From NCBI GenBank assembly GCA_045127455.1, contig JBGVQK010000086.1, positions 488 through 64,487 of the forward strand: DNA of 64,000 nucleotides, read 5' to 3'. Shown in pieces: positions 51,077-58,928 of this stretch (positions are counted from its first letter, which is position 1; each line of letters begins with the position of its first letter). The notes below the pieces were generated by a model. The model worked only from the letters and a program-made list of their open reading frames with translations, did not search any database and had not been told where the DNA came from. The DNA is from Eubacteriales bacterium (lineage in GTDB: Bacteria; Bacillota; Clostridia; Oscillospirales; CAG-272). Position numbers and translations under genes: made by a program.

Positions 51077-51137
51077 AATAAGATAGGGATAGCAGTTTTG
51101 CACAAGTCCGTTAAAAACGGACAATTGAAAAAAAGGG

Positions 51138-51174
51138 CCTCCTATGGTAGAATATAAACATCTACCATAGGAGG
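51138..51174 (+). promoter_or_regulatory. 14-bp hairpin sequestering the orfA ribosome-binding site
   Basis: cctcctatggtaga / tctaccataggagg. The right arm contains the GGAGG located 8 nt before ATG 51183. Confidence 0.6.
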
Positions 51175-51182
51175 AATTTTTT

Positions 51183-51518
51183 ATGTCACGAGAATATAGG
51201 CACATACAAGAATATGAAAAAGAGATATTGGAGTTGAGAGAAAAAGGACATTGTCATCAAGAAATAGGAGACAAATTAGGGTTTACCAAGAAACAAGTAA
51301 CAAAGTTTTTTGAGAGATACCATAAAAAGCAACGCAGAATAGCCGCAGGAATAACCCTCAAGAAGAAAGGCAGACCTGCAAGGAATAGTATCGTCACCGA
51401 GGAAGATAAGCTTGCAGATCTGCGGTACAAGCTTGCCCGTAAAGATGCACGGATAAAGCAATTAGAAATGGAAAATGAACTGATGCGGGATTTTCTCTCG
51501 CTCACGGAAAGGAAGTGA
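51183..51518 (+). CDS. IS3-family transposase OrfA (HTH)
   Basis: 111 aa with an HTH (ILELREKGHCHQEIGDKLGFTKKQV) and a leucine-zipper-like C-terminus. Confidence 0.85.
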   Translation: MSREYRHIQEYEKEILELREKGHCHQEIGDKLGFTKKQVTKFFERYHKKQRRIAAGITLKKKGRPARNSIVTEEDKLADLRYKLARKDARIKQLEMENELMRDFLSLTERK

Positions 51519-52369
51519 GAACAAGTGTAAAATACATGGTAATCTATCGTCACAAGGATAAATATGGGATAAGCGAAATGTGCCGGTTCTTTGAGGTATC
51601 AAGAAGTGGCTACTATGACTATGTTAAAAGGATGGATATTCCTGCGTGGGATCTTCCTCTTGCCGAGAAGATCCGAGAGTGTCAGGAACACAGCCATAGC
51701 ACTTACGGCTATCGTAGGGTTCAGATATGGCTTGAAAGACAAGGGATTCATAAAAACCCCAAGACTGTACTACGTGTAATGCAGAAATACAACCTTCTTT
51801 CTGTTGTAAGGAGAAAGAAATACCGTAACTATGGCGAGTATTTACATAGATATCCAAACCTGCTTAACAGAGACTTTCACGCAGATCGTCCCAATCAAAA
51901 GTGGGTAACGGATATTTCGTATATCAAAACAGGGCAAGGTATACTGTATCTTTCTGTTATTCGTGACCTCTACGACAACAGCATCGTCGCCTACAAAACT
52001 GGTACTGAACAGAATATTAACCTCGTTCTCTCTACCATCAGAGCAGCCAAAAGAAAGGAAAAGGTCACCGCAGAGCTGCAACTCCACAGTGACCAAGGCT
52101 TTCAATACACATCGCAAGCATATTTTAAGCTAACACAATCATATCACATAACTCCGTCAATGTCAAGACGTGGAAACCCATATGATAACGCTTTAGCTGA
52201 AAATTTTTTCTCAATCCTCAAAACCGAGTGCATTTACCGCGCAAAAATCCGCACCTATGCGGCGGCGCGCCTCCTCATAGGTGCATACATCCACTTTTAC
52301 AACAACGAACGTATTCAACTCAAAACAAAACTGACACCACTCGAAAAGCGATGTCAGTTCGTTGCTTAA
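51515..52369 (+). CDS. IS3-family transposase OrfB (DDE integrase core)
   Basis: NQKWVTDISY, HSDQGFQYTS, GNPYDNALAENFFSILKTE. The -1 frame relative to orfA is open from 51479. Confidence 0.88.
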   Translation: MRTSVKYMVIYRHKDKYGISEMCRFFEVSRSGYYDYVKRMDIPAWDLPLAEKIRECQEHSHSTYGYRRVQIWLERQGIHKNPKTVLRVMQKYNLLSVVRRKKYRNYGEYLHRYPNLLNRDFHADRPNQKWVTDISYIKTGQGILYLSVIRDLYDNSIVAYKTGTEQNINLVLSTIRAAKRKEKVTAELQLHSDQGFQYTSQAYFKLTQSYHITPSMSRRGNPYDNALAENFFSILKTECIYRAKIRTYAAARLLIGAYIHFYNNERIQLKTKLTPLEKRCQFVA

Positions 52370-52454
52370 ATTTTAATATTTTCTACCTAAGGTCCCCTTT
52401 TTGTGCTGTCCGCACAATTTGGTTCAGTTCATTTTATCTGCTATCCCTTTGCTT

Positions 52455-53430: not shown

Positions 53431-53631
53431 TTAGGCGAAAAAGTCGTCCACCTTGCAGCCGATGGTCTGGGCGAGGAGTGGCAAAACGGCAATATCGGGA
53501 TAGCTTTCTTCCCTTTCCCACTTGGAAATGGATTGCGAGGTTACGCCAATCAGGTCGGCAATTTGTTGTTGTGTGACTTTATTCTCGTTGCGATACGTTT
53601 TAAGCTTTTCTGAAATAATAATTTTCTTCAT
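53431..53631 (-). CDS. small XRE-family HTH protein (66 aa)
   Basis: VTQQQIADLIGVTSQSISKWEREESYPDIAVLPLLAQ. ATG 53631 is 1 nt after the upstream stop (TTG 53646 is the alternative). Confidence 0.75.
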   Translation of the reverse strand: MKKIIISEKLKTYRNENKVTQQQIADLIGVTSQSISKWEREESYPDIAVLPLLAQTIGCKVDDFFA

Positions 53632-53632
53632 T

Positions 53633-54109
53633 TTAATTTTGTCCAAGTCTTATTCTTTCACTTGCCCACGCCTTACGGACTGCCGTGTGATGCCACAGGT
53701 TGATAAGAGGAAACGCGAGAATTCCAACGGGAAATACCCATTTAGCGTATGCAACAATAAAGATTAACGGTACATAAAGAATGGTGAAAATGATGCACTC
53801 AGTGCGGAACTGCTTTGATTTTGCGAGTGCTTTGAAATCGGCTTTGCGGTCGTACTTCTCTGCTCCGAGGGTGTTCAAAAATTCTCTGCGTGCTTCGGCA
53901 TCTCTTGCGTGAGGAATGCAGATTGCAAGCACGTTGAACGCCATTGTACCAAGGCGCACAAACACATTGGTTACATAGTCACCGGCAATGGGATTGCCCA
54001 TAATGGCGTTGAAGATGGTTGCAAAAATGGTAACTGCCAGCACGCGTAACAGTATAGAGCCGCCAAACATAATGGCTAAATTGATAAAAAACAGTTTTGC
54101 AGGTTTCAT
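53633..54109 (-). CDS. polytopic membrane protein, unknown function (158 aa)
   Basis: Four hydrophobic segments. The ATG directly abuts the stop of the upstream paralogue (TAAATG). Confidence 0.65.
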   Translation of the reverse strand: MKPAKLFFINLAIMFGGSILLRVLAVTIFATIFNAIMGNPIAGDYVTNVFVRLGTMAFNVLAICIPHARDAEARREFLNTLGAEKYDRKADFKALAKSKQFRTECIIFTILYVPLIFIVAYAKWVFPVGILAFPLINLWHHTAVRKAWASERIRLGQN

Positions 54110-54901
54110 TTAATAATCCTCCTTATGTCCAAGTGATTCGAAGTGAGCGTGCAGCTCGTGTTTGAGACGTTTTGTTAAAACCTTCCATCTACATACAATA
54201 ACATTTCCACTGATACATTCGCCTGTGATGCTGTGCATTATCTGTCCTTTCATAAAATATGCATCGGCATAAGAGTGATCGAGCACCAAGCAATGATATT
54301 CTGTATTTCGGGATGGAAATTCGGGAATGGAATATGCGCTGAAATGCTTGTAGTCAATTTTGCGAGGCCCGCGACGCAAACCAAAGCCTTCTAAATCTCC
54401 GGGGAGCGCCATGTGCATGCGGTATTCACGGTCATTTAGCAACAAAAACATTTTAAACACCGGGAGTGGTACATCTACAAAATGAAGGAGCAACTTTTTT
54501 CCTTCCATTTGAATTTCGATGTCAGCACACTCATCCACGCCTTTTAAAGATGCAAACAGTGAGCGACCAAAACGGCAAGTATAGCCTTTTTTGCGGCAAG
54601 TACACCATATCGCTAAATATTTTAACGGTCTACCAATGAAAAACAGAAGTATCGGTATGACACCGTCAACGATAACCCACACAAGGAACAAAAAAACAAA
54701 GCAACCAAGTAAAATGATACATCCCCATTTTAAGCCGCGATCTAAAACGTCATTCGTAATTTTGGGGAGAACCTTATCAAAAAACACATCAAATCGAAAT
54801 TGAGAAATGAAGATAGCTATCAGTATGCCAACAAACAACAATATGGGGATGCCAATGAGGAGCTTCCCTTTTGTTTTATTTGAAAGTTTTTTTCTTTTCA
54901 C
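54110..54901 (-). CDS. membrane-anchored protein, paralogue 3 of an unrecognised family (263 aa)
   Basis: GTG start. MKRKKLSNKTKGK, two TM segments, then a conserved soluble domain (CRF.R..FASL.GV, FLL.ND.EY.MH, GEC.SGN..VC) shared with 54949..55737 and 56987..57766. Confidence 0.7.
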   Translation of the reverse strand: MKRKKLSNKTKGKLLIGIPILLFVGILIAIFISQFRFDVFFDKVLPKITNDVLDRGLKWGCIILLGCFVFLFLVWVIVDGVIPILLFFIGRPLKYLAIWCTCRKKGYTCRFGRSLFASLKGVDECADIEIQMEGKKLLLHFVDVPLPVFKMFLLLNDREYRMHMALPGDLEGFGLRRGPRKIDYKHFSAYSIPEFPSRNTEYHCLVLDHSYADAYFMKGQIMHSITGECISGNVIVCRWKVLTKRLKHELHAHFESLGHKEDY

Positions 54902-54948
54902 TTGGAACCATCCTTTCTTTCAAGAATGTGTAAAATTCCTATTTCAGT

Positions 54949-55737
54949 TCATTTAATAGGTGTAAAAATTTCATTATTGAGGCGTTTTCTCAAGGTGTTT
55001 AGATTACATACGGTAATATTACCTACCACACATTCATCTATCACGTTAAGTACTACACTGTCCTTTGTAAATTTAGCAACGGCATAAGAAGGATCGACTA
55101 CCAAATAGTGATATTCTATTCCTTTTGTCGGAAATTCGGGAATCGAATACGTGTTGAACATATCTTCAACAATCTCGCGCTCTTTCGGAAGCCGACCCTC
55201 CAAAAAGCCCCGTTTTTTATTCCGCACAGATTTGTGCATACGATACTCACAATCATTCACCAATAAAAAAGTTCTAAACCATGGGAATGGAATCCCCACA
55301 AAATGAACGTGTAATGTTTTTTGATTGATTCCAATTTCAATATGGCTATCCCTTTTCACACCGAGCAAAGATGCAAAAGGTGCGCGATGAAAACGACAAG
55401 AATGTCCATTTTTGCGGCAGAGCTGCCATATTTTGAAATATGCAAAAAGTCTCCCGAAGAAGAATCCCAATAGCGGCAAAACGATAGTCGCTAGGAGTAT
55501 TATTAAGACTAACACAATCAAAGTGGCTATAATAACAAGAAACGCCCGATATGTATCACTTTCTTTATACAAAGAAAACCATTTTTCCACACTATCTACA
55601 TAGTTATCAAAACCACCGATTATGGAAATGAGACGGGCAAAAATGAAGCCCACGATTAAAACAACAACTCCTATTATAACAGATGCTATAATAAGCTTCC
55701 CTTTTGTTTTATTGGAAAGTTTTTTTCTTCTTTTCAT
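54949..55737 (-). CDS. membrane-anchored protein, paralogue 2 of the unrecognised family (262 aa)
   Basis: MKRRKKLSNKTKGK, two TM segments, and the same conserved motifs. The ATG overlaps the upstream stop (ATGA). Confidence 0.7.
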   Translation of the reverse strand: MKRRKKLSNKTKGKLIIASVIIGVVVLIVGFIFARLISIIGGFDNYVDSVEKWFSLYKESDTYRAFLVIIATLIVLVLIILLATIVLPLLGFFFGRLFAYFKIWQLCRKNGHSCRFHRAPFASLLGVKRDSHIEIGINQKTLHVHFVGIPFPWFRTFLLVNDCEYRMHKSVRNKKRGFLEGRLPKEREIVEDMFNTYSIPEFPTKGIEYHYLVVDPSYAVAKFTKDSVVLNVIDECVVGNITVCNLNTLRKRLNNEIFTPIK

Positions 55738-56369
55738 TTTGCATCGTCCTTTCTTTCAAAGACGTACCAATAGGGTTCGATGCCGCACAGTCTTTTGACG
55801 ATGTTGTCAACAGTAATATCATTGATATCAACCGGAATCTCTGATGTAAAAAATTCACTTTTCAAAAAAGAAAGCTCTTTTTTGGCTCCTGAAACCGTTA
55901 TTGACTTTTCTATCAGTGATATGTCGGTTCCGGCGACAATAGTGTAATTTTCCTTGATGATATGTTTTTGTATCAAATCGAATCTCCAACAAGTTAAGTT
56001 CGCATTTTCTTTAGCAAACTCTACAAATGTAACAGTATAAATCGGGCTGCGCGTTTTGCTGTCCTTTCCTTTTTTGATCGGCTGCGCTTGAAGATCAAAG
56101 CCCTGTATGCATTTTTTCAAAACATCGTTCTCTATATTTTCAGCAACCCATTTATTGAGCACAGAATCAATTTCGGAGTCTTTGATTTTTTGCGTTTTCA
56201 AAAAAATCAAGGCAGAAACAGCGACAGCAAAAATGGGAGTCCCGATTGGTATGCCGTGCCACGCAAATGTGATAATACCTGCTGCAATAATTGCCACTCC
56301 TAAAAGAATGAACTCTAAAACGGTCCAGTTTTTTTGTTCAAAATATTTTTGCGCCAAATCCTTTTTCAT
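55734..56369 (-). CDS. membrane protein, unknown function (211 aa), with a C-terminal tail copied from the MerR-like gene
   Basis: Two TM segments near the N-terminus. It ends GIEPYWYVFERKDDAK, versus GMEPYWYVFERKDEAK at the end of 57763..58875. Confidence 0.65.
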   Translation of the reverse strand: MKKDLAQKYFEQKNWTVLEFILLGVAIIAAGIITFAWHGIPIGTPIFAVAVSALIFLKTQKIKDSEIDSVLNKWVAENIENDVLKKCIQGFDLQAQPIKKGKDSKTRSPIYTVTFVEFAKENANLTCWRFDLIQKHIIKENYTIVAGTDISLIEKSITVSGAKKELSFLKSEFFTSEIPVDINDITVDNIVKRLCGIEPYWYVFERKDDAK

Positions 56370-56390: not shown

Positions 56391-56963
56391 TTAACCGATC
56401 ACTAACGAATGTCCGCAGTCCTCACAATGAGAGGCGGTTTTGTCGTTATTCGTTCCGCAAACAGAACATTGAACCATTTTATCGGATGATTTTGGCAGAA
56501 CAACGGTTTGCATAGAGCCGTACAAATGAAAAACACGGTCTCCTACTTTATAAGTCTCTAAATTTTGTGCCAATTTGGTACTTCTTTCGTACGCCTTTTT
56601 GCGTACTACAATACCGTTCTCTTTTTCAACATGCAAAAAAATTGTGTTTTTCATATATAGGTTTTCTCTCGTGGGGCGACCGTGATACTCATTATCGACT
56701 GTGGTGGCAATTTCCAACTTTTGAACTGTACCGACATACGTTTGATCGATCAGTTTGAACGGCACACCCGTTACAGCAAACGGAACAAGCATTATCATTG
56801 TATACACAATTACCTTAACGATTTCTTTGTCAATTGGCAGAATAACGTCGCCCCAAAAGATCAATGCTATGGAAAAAGCAACGAGCAACAGCACGCACGG
56901 AACAACTCTTTTGAGAGCGGATTTAATTGCAAAATTTTTTAGATCTTTTGGTAATGTTTTCAT
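56391..56963 (-). CDS. membrane protein with a C-terminal zinc ribbon, unknown function (190 aa)
   Basis: Two TM segments, a soluble middle part, and CSVCGTNNDKTASHCEDCGH. RBS AGAGGAA. Confidence 0.65.
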   Translation of the reverse strand: MKTLPKDLKNFAIKSALKRVVPCVLLLVAFSIALIFWGDVILPIDKEIVKVIVYTMIMLVPFAVTGVPFKLIDQTYVGTVQKLEIATTVDNEYHGRPTRENLYMKNTIFLHVEKENGIVVRKKAYERSTKLAQNLETYKVGDRVFHLYGSMQTVVLPKSSDKMVQCSVCGTNNDKTASHCEDCGHSLVIG

Positions 56964-56986: not shown

Positions 56987-57766
56987 TTAGTCGATATTGG
57001 AATGGAGCTTACTTTTGAGATGTTTTTTCAAAACCTTCATCCTGCATACGGTAATATTCCCCGAGGTACACTCACCTGTTATGCTCAGCATTTTTTTGTT
57101 TTCGATGAAATATGCGTTTGCATAAGAGGGAGAAATGACAAGATAATGACGTTCTGTTTCGTTTGACAAGAGCGCAGGCATAGTGTATACCGTATAATTA
57201 TCGGGATCCATAACCTGTTCACTCGGTCGAATAAAGCCACCAAAGCCGCGCAATTTTCCGGGGATAGACTTATGCATACAGTATTCACGGTCATTTGCCA
57301 ATAAAAACATTCTCAAAAACGGGAACGGGATATCGATCAAGTGAATGTGCAAGGTTTCACCCTTTATTTTTATTTCTATATCAGCCTTTTCACTTACACC
57401 TATCAAGGAAGCAAACATCGGGCGGCGAAAGCGGCAAGAATACTTTTTTTGAATGCAAATACACCATATTTTGAAATATGTAAACGGCTTTGCAATAAAA
57501 AAACAAAGCATGGGTAATATTTGATTGACGAAAAGAACCAAGAAAGCAAACTCTGCTATAACAAGAGCCACCGTTGCAATGGTAGCAAGAATTTCAAAGC
57601 TTTTATCGCTCAATTCGTTAAAAAGCTTTTTCCCTATCGAAGTGTTAAAGAAAGCAGAAGTGACAATAGTGATGCAAAATGCCAAAAACAAACCGATAAC
57701 AATGATAGAAGCAACGAGAATTAGAATTTTCCCTTTTGTTTGGTTTGAAATTTTTCTTCTTTTCAT
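56987..57766 (-). CDS. membrane-anchored protein, paralogue 1 of the unrecognised family (259 aa)
   Basis: MKRRKISNQTKGK, two TM segments, and the same conserved motifs. The ATG overlaps the MerR-like stop (ATGA). Confidence 0.7.
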   Translation of the reverse strand: MKRRKISNQTKGKILILVASIIVIGLFLAFCITIVTSAFFNTSIGKKLFNELSDKSFEILATIATVALVIAEFAFLVLFVNQILPMLCFFIAKPFTYFKIWCICIQKKYSCRFRRPMFASLIGVSEKADIEIKIKGETLHIHLIDIPFPFLRMFLLANDREYCMHKSIPGKLRGFGGFIRPSEQVMDPDNYTVYTMPALLSNETERHYLVISPSYANAYFIENKKMLSITGECTSGNITVCRMKVLKKHLKSKLHSNID

Positions 57767-58875
57767 TTTGCTTCGTCCTTTCTTTCAAAGACGTACCAAT
57801 AAGGTTCCATGCCGCCAAAGGCATAATCGCCCGATTTATGCTCTACAAGGAGATAGTCTTTGCCCTCAAAGCTTTTGATGATGTATTTCTCTGCCGTCAT
57901 GTGGGTGCGGTTGAGGACGAGCCCCTTGGTATAGTTGACTCCCCAACTCATTTTTTTGCCGTTCGCTTCGGAACGGGTAAATTTGAGACAGATTCCGCGC
58001 GGCAAAAATTGCATTTCCACAATGCTCAAACGTTTTTTGGGAGAGCATTGATGTGCCGGATCAAAATCTTCGGCGCGGTGAACAAAATCCACAACGCTCC
58101 ACGTGCCACTAACCGCGGGATCCTCTACAAAGGGGTAATCGACCTTGTCGATATGCGGGCGCATTTGATCCTCACTGTAAGCAATGGTATCGACCTGACG
58201 ATACAGAACGGGGAGCGCTTGGTCGATTGCAAGGTCGTTATCCTTCATAAAATAGATGATCATATAGTGTTCGCCATTTTGGCGGACGGTTCGGTATGGG
58301 TTTGCAACCGAGGAGCCGTGCTTGCCCGACATGGTGTAAAGGATTCCTTTTGTCCAAAAGTAGGACCACACGTTTGCTCCGCCCGGCATAAAGATGATCT
58401 CCTTGAAGATGCGTTCCTCGGGCGCGATTTCAACTGCCGAAGCAAAGTCGTTTTCATCGCGCAGCATTCCGCAAAGCTCCCATTTGCCAACCACCTCGGG
58501 GTGATTGGTGAAAGGAATATTGACGATGCTTGGCAATGGCTTTCCGCCCTCATCGTGCGCAAACATCCCGTTTATGGTTTGTACCTGACCTTGAATTTGT
58601 TGAACCGAGGAAAGAAGTGTTCCCTTTTTCTTTTTGAGCATTTCCTTTTCTTCTTCCTCGGTGGCAGCCAGTAATTTTGTAATTTCTTGCAGCGAGAAGC
58701 CGAGGTCTTTATAAAAGATGAGCTTTTTGTATTTTTTTACAGCCTCGGGGGAGTAAAAACGATACCCTGTTACTTCGTCGACAAAGTCCGCTTTGAGGAC
58801 TCCCGCATCATCGTAATAGCGCAACGTTCTTGCACTGGTGTCGCAAATTTTTGCAAAGTCACCTATTTTTAGCAT
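57763..58875 (-). CDS. MerR-family transcriptional regulator with a ~300-aa C-terminal domain of unknown type
   Basis: MLKIGDFAKICDTSARTLRYYDDAGVLKADFVDEVTGYRFYSPEAVKKYKKLIFYKDLGFSLQEI. ATG 58875 follows GGAGG-N7. The track start 58899 lies inside the -10 box. Confidence 0.85.
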   Translation of the reverse strand: MLKIGDFAKICDTSARTLRYYDDAGVLKADFVDEVTGYRFYSPEAVKKYKKLIFYKDLGFSLQEITKLLAATEEEEKEMLKKKKGTLLSSVQQIQGQVQTINGMFAHDEGGKPLPSIVNIPFTNHPEVVGKWELCGMLRDENDFASAVEIAPEERIFKEIIFMPGGANVWSYFWTKGILYTMSGKHGSSVANPYRTVRQNGEHYMIIYFMKDNDLAIDQALPVLYRQVDTIAYSEDQMRPHIDKVDYPFVEDPAVSGTWSVVDFVHRAEDFDPAHQCSPKKRLSIVEMQFLPRGICLKFTRSEANGKKMSWGVNYTKGLVLNRTHMTAEKYIIKSFEGKDYLLVEHKSGDYAFGGMEPYWYVFERKDEAK

Positions 58876-58897
58876 TGCACCGCCTCCTTTTTCCTCC

Positions 58898-58928
58898 ATT
58901 ATAACATTACAGTTAACTGTAAAGTCAA
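58898..58928 (-). promoter_or_regulatory. MerR-type promoter/operator (19-bp spacer containing a perfect palindrome)
   Basis: The minus strand reads TTGACT (58923-58928), spacer ttacagttaactgtaatgt (19 nt), TATAAT (58898-58903). TTACAGTTAACTGTAA (58907-58922) is a perfect 16-bp palindrome. Confidence 0.8.

Follow-up and report, generated by a model that had tools for sequence, protein, structure and literature searches.

A duplicated regulator-gene junction and a grafted MerR tail suggest stacking of alternative alleles in an operon array of uncultured gut Oscillospiraceae

Two otherwise unrelated genes in the 64,000-nt stretch of DNA analyzed here (the window), one for a MerR-family regulator and one for a 211-aa protein (g211'), have nearly the same 3' end, and each is followed by a member of one paralog family. 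How did this junction come to be present twice? A preliminary description of the locus had reported a ~95-nt block occurring twice at about 90% identity and had placed it correctly to within ~10 nt (Table 1). The duplicated junction is genuine. On the minus strand, the 65-mer GCGGCAT..GAAGAAAAA at 57751-57815 has a three-mismatch copy at 55722-55786 (62/65 nt identical), a match for which the expected number in dinucleotide shuffles was 0. The longest exact match between the regulator junction (J1) and the g211' junction (J2) is 29 nt; with one 3-nt indel allowed, ~90 nt are similar at ~90% (57729-57815 vs. 55697-55786). The block comprises the last 16 codons of the upstream open reading frame (ORF), an AAGGA ribosome-binding site, an ATGA stop/start overlap, and ~13 codons of the paralog. 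AAGGA lies 9 nt before the ATG, within the final codons of the upstream ORF, and the layout is the same at both junctions, with the overlaps at 57766-57763 in J1 and 55737-55734 in J2. The similarity is not limited to the ribosome-binding site and start region: the match runs well into the upstream coding tails. The translation of the MerR ORF ends in ..FGGMEPYWYVFERKDEAK and that of the 211-aa ORF in ..LCGIEPYWYVFERKDDAK, and the two unrelated proteins do share the C-terminal end EPYWYVFERKD(E/D)AK, as first described. The M/I difference between J1 and J2 is explained by the origin of the Ile codon in J2, which derives from g211.

Table 1. Features of the array and its junctions (window coordinates)
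Feature	Position	Strand	Remarks
MerR-type promoter (putative)	58898..58928	-	TTGACT (58928-58923), 19-nt spacer, TATAAT (58903-58898); read from sequence
MerR-family regulator gene	57763..58875	-	370 aa; ATG 58875; AGGAGG 7 nt upstream
J1, live junction	57729..57815	-	last 16 MerR codons, AAGGA Shine-Dalgarno (SD) sequence, ATGA overlap, first ~13 p1 codons
p1, paralog	56987..57766	-	259 aa; uncharacterized family; two long N-terminal helices, C-terminal alpha/beta domain
zn190	56391..56963	-	small membrane protein with C-terminal zinc ribbon; homologs in other arrays
g211', chimeric 211-aa gene	55734..56369	-	codons 1-197 native (..VKRLCGI), 198-211 MerR-derived
Putative illegitimate joint, GGCAT(C) microhomology	55779..55784	-	native g211 end GGC ATC AAA vs. 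MerR end GGC ATG GAA
J2	55697..55786	-	49 nt of resident MerR 3' end plus p2 start and N-terminal codons; in-frame fusion to g211
p2, paralog	54949..55737	-	262 aa; directly after MerR in same-species strains, L004, L007
J3	54902..54935	-	decayed noncoding MerR-tail remnant before p3; 13-nt core at 54911-54923
p3, paralog	54110..54901	-	263 aa; GTG start
tm158	53633-54109	-	membrane protein; array end
XRE-type HTH gene	53431-53646	-	71 aa; array end
Array end (tm158 and XRE-type HTH gene)	53431..54109	-	
Inferred imported segment	55779..58069	-	~254 nt foreign MerR 3' sequence, J1, p1, zn190, g211 codons 1-197

The locus appears to be an operon read from one MerR-type promoter, with the regulator gene first, followed by a strain-variable array of ~260-aa membrane paralogs and small membrane proteins. 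Whatever gene comes next, its ribosome-binding site lies within the final regulator codons (..YWYVFERKD..), and its ATG is overlapped by the regulator TGA. The regulator start listed in Table 1 is the most likely one; an alternative 378-aa ORF from 58899 begins inside the -10 box, and homologs are mostly 366-370 aa long. Promoters activated by MerR proteins are marked by an overlong spacer of 19 nt (19-20 bp) with a central palindrome. Here, the spacer holds the perfect palindrome ACAGTTAACTGT at 58920-58909, a putative operator; our consensus promoter scan was limited to spacers of 16-18 nt, so the site at 58898-58928 was not listed by it. The regulator has a MerR helix-turn-helix (HTH; Pfam MerR_1 PF13411, E=5e-12; PF00376, E=5e-9), and its residues 10-118 match the sequences of MtaN, EcmrR, TipA, and BmrR in the PDB. 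In the AF2 model, the HTH is followed by a long helix (73-104) and two beta-rich domains (130-229 and 257-365), in which no Pfam domain was found; the lipocalin-like matches that Foldseek gave for them were weak (E about 3e-3, TM 0.35-0.46 to target). The last beta-strand of the model, residues 359-365, is YWYVFER. A tail of the form ..P.WYVFERK.. ends 120 of the 120 homologs listed, down to 44% identity, with P358 and R365 invariant and Y361, V362, and F363 each conserved in at least 90%, and it is kept even where no paralog follows (L034 and L005; L numbers denote the sequences compared with the window). Judged from these homologs, the YWYVFERKD tail is native to the MerR-family regulator.

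The tail is, by the same kind of comparison, foreign to g211. Codons 198-211 of g211' (EPYWYVFERKDDAK) and the stop codon, at 55734-55778, are MerR 3' sequence in the MerR frame. Homologs of g211 from seven other clusters are all 199 aa long and end in ..LCGIKS or ..LCGLEK, without the MerR tail (0/7). The native 3' end of g211 is also visible at the DNA level in L009 and L004; L009 reads CTGTGTGGCATCAAATCTTGA, and the window reads CTGTGCGGCATC followed directly by GAACCC at the joint. The last 14 residues of g211' give rise to its spurious match to the MerR 3' end of L003 (E=2e-6). Because the tail occurs in all listed MerR homologs and is absent from the other g211 clusters, the direction of transfer is from MerR to g211, with 14 borrowed residues, and the earlier claim of a MerR C-terminal tail grafted onto the 211-aa gene holds. 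An in-frame joint has a prior of 1 in 3; retention of the frame is therefore no evidence of selection.

The paralogs p1, p2, and p3 share only ~41% amino acid identity, as opposed to 95% nucleotide identity between J1 and J2. Thus, the paralogs are far older than the junction repeat. The arrangement also varies between strains, in copy number as well as in order. Ten same-species contigs (L011-L020) have a single junction in the order MerR, p2, p3 and are without p1-zn190-g211; the common species allele continues with tm158 and the XRE-type gene. The window corresponds to the L012 allele with a 2,029-nt insert between the copies of the 90-nt repeat. Within the same flanks, L008 has MerR-p3, and L009 and L010 have p1-zn190-g211 with the 199-aa form of g211 and no MerR in front. 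The closest p1 block, at 85-88% nucleotide identity, is that of L009 and L010. MerR heads the array in the window, L001-L005, L007, L008, L011-L020, and L026-L033.

The preliminary description had proposed that the paralog spread within the locus as a unit that includes the 3' end of the regulator gene. Internal paralog copies in L001, L004, L005, and L026 do carry a piece of the regulator 3' end, and that part of the proposal stands; duplication within the locus is not supported. Under such a scheme, a paralog and the MerR 3' end would have been duplicated in situ and the paralogs would then have diverged, with gene conversion keeping J1 and J2 alike. It would fit the likeness of internal remnants to the MerR tail of their own genome (31/31 nt in L004, 24/34 in L026), and two J2 positions of the window that resemble J1 and not the junction of allele A (L011/L012) could be a short conversion tract. 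We nevertheless consider it highly improbable. The same-species strains lack p1-zn190-g211 altogether, the nearest relatives of p1 are located in a different allele, and the zn190 and g211 genes between p1 and p2 are left without an account. Moreover, J2 is the resident MerR-p2 junction; in L021, it is identical to the junction of L012 from GAACCC to the ATG. Paralog types are also interchangeable at the first position across genomes: at 70% identity there are nine types, at least six of which come right after MerR in one genome or another, and types at the first position recur at the second or third position elsewhere.

The regulator gene itself is a mosaic, and the mosaic reaches exactly to the insert, a further point against duplication in situ. 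Its 5' 806 nt are 99.0-99.3% identical to allele A, its last 254 nt before J1 are 81-83% identical (Fisher p about 1e-21 to 1e-25), and p2, past the insert, is again 98.9% identical. Most of the divergence is concentrated in a 135-nt patch (57935-58069), which is 74% identical to allele A, 97.8% to L001, and 100% to L008; over the 119 nt from the patch to J1, there are only 5-9 differences to allele A. For this reason, two or more recombination events may overlie each other, and since L008 shares it, the patch is a circulating polymorphism.

We infer from these comparisons that a single one-sided recombination, homologous on the left and illegitimate on the right, probably stacked a foreign block in front of the resident p2. 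DNA of a diverged relative, bringing its own MerR 3' part, J1, p1, zn190, and g211, would have entered the common MerR-p2-p3 allele in the lineage of the window. The left joint would lie inside MerR near 58070, and the right joint would have formed at the GGCAT microhomology between the incoming g211 3' end and the resident MerR 3' end (55784-55779). The body of the resident regulator gene would thereby have been replaced, apart from its last 49 nt, which would have remained on p2 as J2 when p2 was shifted downstream. In this exchange, g211 would have lost two codons (KS-stop) and gained 14 MerR codons, stopping at the same ATGA; hence, p2 would have kept its original ribosome-binding site and stop/start overlap, and the retained stub would matter for its translation. 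The best reading is that the array grew by stacking of alternative alleles and not by duplication in situ. The microhomology of 5-6 nt is short and possibly coincidental, and the order of events is beyond proof from a handful of metagenome contigs. A donor allele with MerR-p1-zn190-g211 and the native 199-aa end was not found, the contigs with exact p1 all being of the stacked form or too short.

The direct J repeats that flank the insert could instead point to a Campbell-type integration, in which a circle with J and p1-zn190-g211' enters by one homologous crossover in the ~90-nt junction and J is duplicated on both sides. The junction and the conserved N-terminal codons together offer ~90 nt of homology common to all cassette types, L004 has the same topology, and the system would resemble an integrase-free integron. 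That scheme leaves the foreign 254-nt part of MerR before J1 unexplained, however, and an illegitimate event of its own would still be needed to join g211' to the MerR tail. We saw neither a circular form nor an attC-like site; the genes called in the window region and in L011-L033 include no integrase, and an IS3 transposase is the sole gene of recombinase type nearby. Integration of this kind is unlikely in our estimation.

An assembly chimera, with alleles of two strains joined via the shared repeat, is conceivable in that the window may stem from metagenome assembly and samples of the same study contain the two types of parental allele together. Yet the chimeric arrangement is also found in L021, L022, L023, and L037, each assembled independently, and the g211'-J2-p2 joint occurs in assemblies from different samples and assemblers (L021, L022, and L023). 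L022 covers both junctions over 7 kb, L023 (Logan) is 100% identical over 3,041 nt, and the P0121 cluster has 12 member sequences. The shared 5-6 nt at the g211/MerR joint are below any assembler k-mer, and the exact match of J1 and J2 stops at 29 nt. A chimera of this sort is exceedingly unlikely, and an assembly artefact as the source of the arrangement was rejected given the same joints in independent contigs.

If arrays grow by stacking, each earlier cassette would be pushed downstream carrying a stub of the regulator gene, and J3 and the remnants in other genomes would be products of like events, J3 being older and decayed. The third, decayed copy proposed to precede p3 does exist, although it is short. 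The 64 kb contain the 13-mer TTGAAAGAAAGGA once at each junction (54911-54923, 55747-55759, and 57776-57788) and nowhere else, against 0.18 occurrences expected, and J3 reads HILERKDGSK-stop in the frame that overlaps the GTG start of p3. J3 agrees with MerR tails at 22-24 of 34 positions, as opposed to 12-17 of 34 for junctions not derived from MerR, and the remnant measures ~22-34 nt. L008 has a complete MerR tail immediately in front of p3.

The likeness of the junctions might also be kept mainly by selection on a cis-acting RNA hairpin, CGUCUUU-GAAAGA-AAGGACG, that occludes the ribosome-binding site until ribosomes finishing the upstream ORF open the stem (translational coupling). This hairpin is the minimum free energy structure in most junctions derived from the MerR tail (dG -6 to -11 kcal/mol per 40 nt, z -2 to -5.5), is absent from junctions of other origin, and pairs best in register at slide 0 (91% vs. 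55-73%); J3 (CAUUCUU/AAGGAUG) and the second L005 copy retain the pairing despite changed bases. However, covariation was no better than composition (91.0% paired vs. 90.8% in shuffles), and a run of pyrimidines opposite a run of purines pairs anyway. The 95% identity of J1 and J2 reaches 22 nt beyond the upstream side of the hairpin, into sequence that needs no such element, and the second copy in L002, the first copy in L005, and paralogs in L006 and L010 do without it. Selection of this kind is a very unlikely main cause; the hairpin is possibly an add-on function of the stub and not the cause of the duplication. As a conserved RNA element, the SD-occluding hairpin was rejected: it folds well, but its covariation equals that of shuffles and it has no Rfam match.

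The paralog family is small (72 clusters at 50% identity in a set of 1.84 billion representatives), and a scan of metagenome contigs for further arrays returned two short loci only. The paralogs, zn190, g211, and tm158 have no Pfam, NCBIfam, PADLOC, or PHROG match, and a PDB sequence profile of the paralog gave nothing significant. For the paralog AF2 model (pLDDT 66), Foldseek gave nothing beyond sub-threshold matches (E of at least 0.08) to PD-(D/E)xK nucleases, which is too weak to name a function. Synonymous codons of the paralog N-terminus show a modest excess of identity (71% vs. 52% identical codons); it was discarded as a recombination or regulatory signal, as AAA codon bias can account for it. 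Internal promoters and terminators did not exceed shuffle expectation within the array. It is tempting to view the MerR 3' end as a portable adaptor (ribosome-binding site, stop/start overlap, and recombination anchor) and the paralog stacks as a diversifying defense or immunity repertoire, a view we hold to be rather unlikely. If true, any incoming cassette would be expressed at once from the promoter of the regulator, and the displacement logic would be that of toxin-immunity arrays with a sensor-regulator at the head. A PD-(D/E)xK-like C-terminal domain in the paralogs, itself only possible, would suit such a role.

The locus is a clean but ordinary example of bacterial gene-array growth. 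Because resident, stacked, and shortened alleles occupy the same chromosomal flanks, it offers a before-and-after record of the growth of an operon array in uncultured gut Oscillospiraceae. For annotation, g211' should be treated as a chimera, and the MerR similarity of its last 14 residues should not be taken as a shared domain. The analysis also flags an uncharacterized operon under a MerR-type regulator, whose small paralog family, variable between strains in copy number and order, could serve as a strain marker and merits functional work.

Among known systems, the regulator shares an N-terminal winged HTH and a long dimerization helix with ligand-responsive MerR-family activators of the BmrR/Mta type, and the same overlong-spacer promoter type, TTGACT/19 nt/TATAAT around ACAGTTAACTGT, is here its predicted target. 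With translationally coupled overlapping genes the locus shares the ATGA overlap and an SD sequence inside the upstream ORF, coupling being putative here. As in integrons, promoterless cassettes are ordered behind one promoter and newcomers would take the promoter-proximal end. Unlike integrons, the locus has no integrase, attI, or attC; its shared junction is regulator coding sequence plus conserved N-terminal codons, and junction secondary structure amounts to a 7-bp hairpin at most.

The locus also resembles displacement arrays. In Vibrio cholerae T6SS effector-immunity arrays, orphan modules are arranged by sequential displacement (PMC5361080); Rhs C-terminal displacement and the orphan cdiA-CT/cdiI modules of CDI are related systems, as cited there. 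These arrays have a conserved upstream anchor gene, beside which new modules arrive while older ones are pushed downstream with a stub of the anchor 3' end, and they are heterogeneous between strains. Correspondingly, MerR is common to the alleles, the module next to it varies, and anchor fragments were found in J2 (49 nt), J3 (about 22-34 nt), L004 (31 nt), L005, and L026. Homology-facilitated illegitimate recombination (de Vries and Wackernagel 2002, Prudhomme et al. 2002, and Meier and Wackernagel 2003, as cited in PMC5361080; for E. coli conjugation, PMC3240628) has been proposed for those arrays too. Comparative sequence suggests its two ends here: a homology end in the MerR 5' part, where 99% identity gives way to a haplotype switch (81-83%, the stretch from the patch to J1 being only mildly divergent), and a microhomology end at the g211/MerR GGCAT. 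In contrast to those arrays, a transcription regulator takes the place of a toxin or structural gene as the anchor, searches of Pfam, NCBIfam, PADLOC, and PHROG revealed no recognizable toxin or immunity domain, the cassettes stay complete genes with their own start codon and receive a ribosome-binding site from the stub, and one stub became the C-terminus of an unrelated protein. By this analogy, the locus resembles and behaves like a displacement array but is not classed as a polymorphic-toxin locus, and it extends the displacement-array pattern beyond toxin loci, with apparently one homologous and one microhomology joint.

All genes of interest in the window lie on the minus strand, and ATGA overlaps occur at both the MerR/p1 and the g211/p2 boundaries. 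The TTGACT and TATAAT elements, separated by 19 nt with a palindrome, have the appearance of a typical MerR operator-promoter. This promoter overlaps the first ATG of a 378-aa ORF (58873-58899 region); therefore, the regulator probably starts at the ATG at 58875, which has AGGAGG 7 nt upstream and yields 370 aa, as in most homologues. The XRE-type gene has a 14-nt same-strand overlap with the 3' end of tm158, and in related contigs gene callers favour a 66-aa form starting past it. Between the DUF5662 gene and a 634-aa gene sits an IS3-family insertion; the two genes are adjacent in L011-L017, where the insertion is missing.

Features of the regulator-paralogue array and its surroundings (window positions)
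Feature	Position	Strand	Remarks
MerR-type promoter	58928-58898	-	TTGACT, 19 nt with palindrome ACAGTTAACTGT, TATAAT
MerR-family regulator	57763-58875	-	ORF open to 58899
Regulator effector region	57763-58500	-	C-terminal 250 aa
135-nt MerR patch	57935-58069	-
p1	56987-57766	-	259 aa
zn190	56391-56963	-	small membrane protein
g211	55734-56369	-
p2	54949-55737	-	262 aa
Remnant J3	54902-54935	-	decayed
p3	54110-54901	-	263 aa, GTG start
tm158	53633-54109	-	membrane protein
XRE-type HTH gene	53431-53646	-
IS3-family insertion	~51100-52431	+	rve and HTH_21 domains
orfA of the insertion	51183-51518	+
orfB of the insertion	51515-52369	+

The preliminary description held that the MerR/p1 junction (J1) is duplicated at g211/p2 (J2) and extends into the upstream coding tails, which was confirmed. 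The 65-mer at 57751-57815 recurred at 55722-55786 with 3 mismatches (0 expected from shuffles); allowing one 3-nt indel, 57729-57815 and 55697-55786 were 90% identical over ~90 nt. The match begins 49 nt upstream of the ATG, within both upstream ORFs, whose C-terminal ends are GGMEPYWYVFERKDEAK and CGIEPYWYVFERKDDAK. The decayed third copy reported before p3 (J3) was also recovered, though it is short. TTGAAAGAAAGGA was confined to the three junctions (3 seen versus 0.18 expected), the frame overlapping the GTG of p3 reads HILERKDGSK-stop, and J3 agreed with MerR tails at 22 to 24 of 34 positions, as opposed to 12 to 17 of 34 for MerR-unrelated junctions.

The regulator had 1,290 homologues at E<=1e-3, and ..GG..P.WYVFERK.. 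formed the C-terminus in 120 of 120 among the matches listed, down to 44% identity. P358 and R365 were invariant in a 40-sequence regulator alignment, with Y361, V362, and F363 at least 90% conserved. In an AF2 model (pLDDT 77), the second of two beta-rich domains has residues 359-365 as its last beta-strand. The tail is also kept where a non-paralogue gene comes next (L005 and L034), so it belongs to the structure of the regulator itself. At L005 (1780-2020), the tail, ..WYVFERKGKL, is coupled by a TAATG overlap to the gene for a 195-aa membrane protein; the paralogues begin 1.3 kb further on, the first without a MerR stub, as we term the 3'-end remnant of MerR. The effector region consists of the two beta-rich domains in tandem. 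Pfam returned no domain there, the lipocalin-like matches of both domains were weak, and the region may be a hydrophobic-ligand sensor.

The earlier reading of the 211-aa gene as carrying a grafted MerR tail proved right. Seven of the eight clusters of the g211 family are 199 aa long, ending in ..VKRLCGIKS or ..VKKLCGLEK, and among the eight the 211-aa length was found only in the window's form (P0121, 99% identical, 12 members). The native DNA end (L009) is CTG TGT GGC ATC AAA TCT TGA, the window has CTG TGC GGC ATC|GAA CCC TAT.., and MerR has GGC GGC ATG GAA CC. at the corresponding site. Comparison of the three ends places the likely joint in a GGCAT(C) microhomology (55784-55779). In J2, the Ile is g211's own residue, and the graft, EPYWYVFERKDDAK, substitutes 14 residues for KS-stop.

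The three paralogues share 40 to 43% protein identity, and their bodies 40 to 70% DNA identity; the 60 nt around the starts of p1 and p2 are 83 to 100% identical. Judged by these values, the junction repeat is of much later origin than the paralogues. Co-duplication of the stub with the paralogues was rejected, as it would require the stub to escape all divergence.

Ten contigs that are 94 to 99% identical to the window and share its flanks (HisKA, methyltransferase, GT2, flavodoxin ... DUF5662, 634-aa gene) carry, in this order, MerR, p2 (99% aa), p3, tm158, and XRE with a single junction and without p1, zn190, and g211. L008 has MerR followed by p3 only. At the same site, L009 and L010 (85 to 88% nt) carry p1-like, zn190, and g211 (199 aa) ahead of DUF5662, without MerR. 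In this alternative allele (JGI 3300041700 and 3300041529), the three genes directly follow the flavodoxin-side intergenic region, with no MerR-tail junction. In a blastn comparison, the window corresponded to L012 with 2,029 nt added, and the two flanking alignments share 90 nt of L012 (7952-8041). The stacked form recurs in other samples (L021; L022, 7 kb with both junctions; L023, Logan, 100% over 3,041 nt; and L037). J2 of L021 is identical to the MerR-p2 junction of L012 from GAACCC to ATG, which argues that J2 is the resident junction. The young junction, the same-species alleles without p1-zn190-g211, and the resident J2 contradict the proposed origin of the array in situ from one paralogue.

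Two sharply different tm158 alleles exist in the species within otherwise 94 to 100% identical flanks. Those of L012 and L014 are 100% identical to the window, and those of L011, L013, L015-L017, L019, and L008 73% (protein). The gene appears to be another recombination cassette of the same operon.

Compared with allele A, the common same-species form (L011/L012; MerR-p2-p3), the 5' 806 nt of MerR were 99.0 to 99.3% identical, the next 254 nt, up to the junction, 81 to 83% (Fisher p ~1e-21 to 1e-25), and p2 98.9%. The 135-nt patch was 74% identical to allele A, 97.8% to L001, and 100% to L008; outside it, L001 MerR was 82% identical to the window. The patch points to patchy between-lineage exchange inside the regulator gene. 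We propose that a foreign haplotype extends from inside MerR near 58070 to the GGCAT joint and entered by one recombination, homologous at the left end and illegitimate at the right. The mosaic pattern is the footprint expected of such an event. The predicted donor allele of the imported segment was looked for and not found. Since the stretch of 119 nt from the patch to J1 diverges only mildly from allele A and the patch also occurs in L008, more than one event may be overlaid.

In seven species-level genomes, and in additional metagenome contigs, MerR is succeeded by a single paralogue or a pair, together with a shuffled set of zn190, tm158, and g211 relatives. At least six of the nine paralogue types (70% identity) sit directly after MerR somewhere. 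Non-coding MerR-tail remnants precede internal paralogue copies in L001, L004, L005, and L026; the L004 remnant matches its own MerR tail at 31/31 nt, lineage-specific GGGAAAACCCGT included. The remnants support the earlier view of a stub that moves together with its cassette; the companion idea, spread of one paralogue in situ, did not hold. Decay grows with distance from MerR in the window (J1 live, J2 95% identical, J3 decayed), which fits sequential displacement.

The stub contains AAGGA 9 nt before the ATG and the ATGA overlap, and p2 would be set up after the event for coupling to the chimeric g211 exactly as formerly to MerR. An SD-burying hairpin (CGUCUUU/GAAAGA/AAGGACG) was the MFE fold in most MerR-derived junctions (dG -6 to -11, z down to -5.5). 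Several paralogues lack it, its covariation did not exceed that of shuffles (91.0% versus 90.8%), and Rfam gave no match for it; it is at best a candidate functional element.

The paralogues form a small family with no annotation, which counts 64 clusters at 90% identity and 72 at 50% among 1.84 billion representatives. In its model, two long N-terminal helices are joined to an alpha/beta domain. The C-terminal domain (AF2 model) gave weak, consistent, and in all cases sub-threshold Foldseek matches to PD-(D/E)xK nucleases (McrC, Hjc, and RecU; E>=0.08). E131, H142, D159, E161, Y162, H165, and two Cys are invariant in the family.

The locus is new and uncharacterised, and the event probably belongs to a known process, displacement or stacking by one-sided recombination. 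Recombination with one homologous and one illegitimate end is homology-facilitated illegitimate recombination (PMC3240628), the mechanism proposed for orphan immunity gene arrays, Rhs tips, and CDI orphans (PMC5361080).
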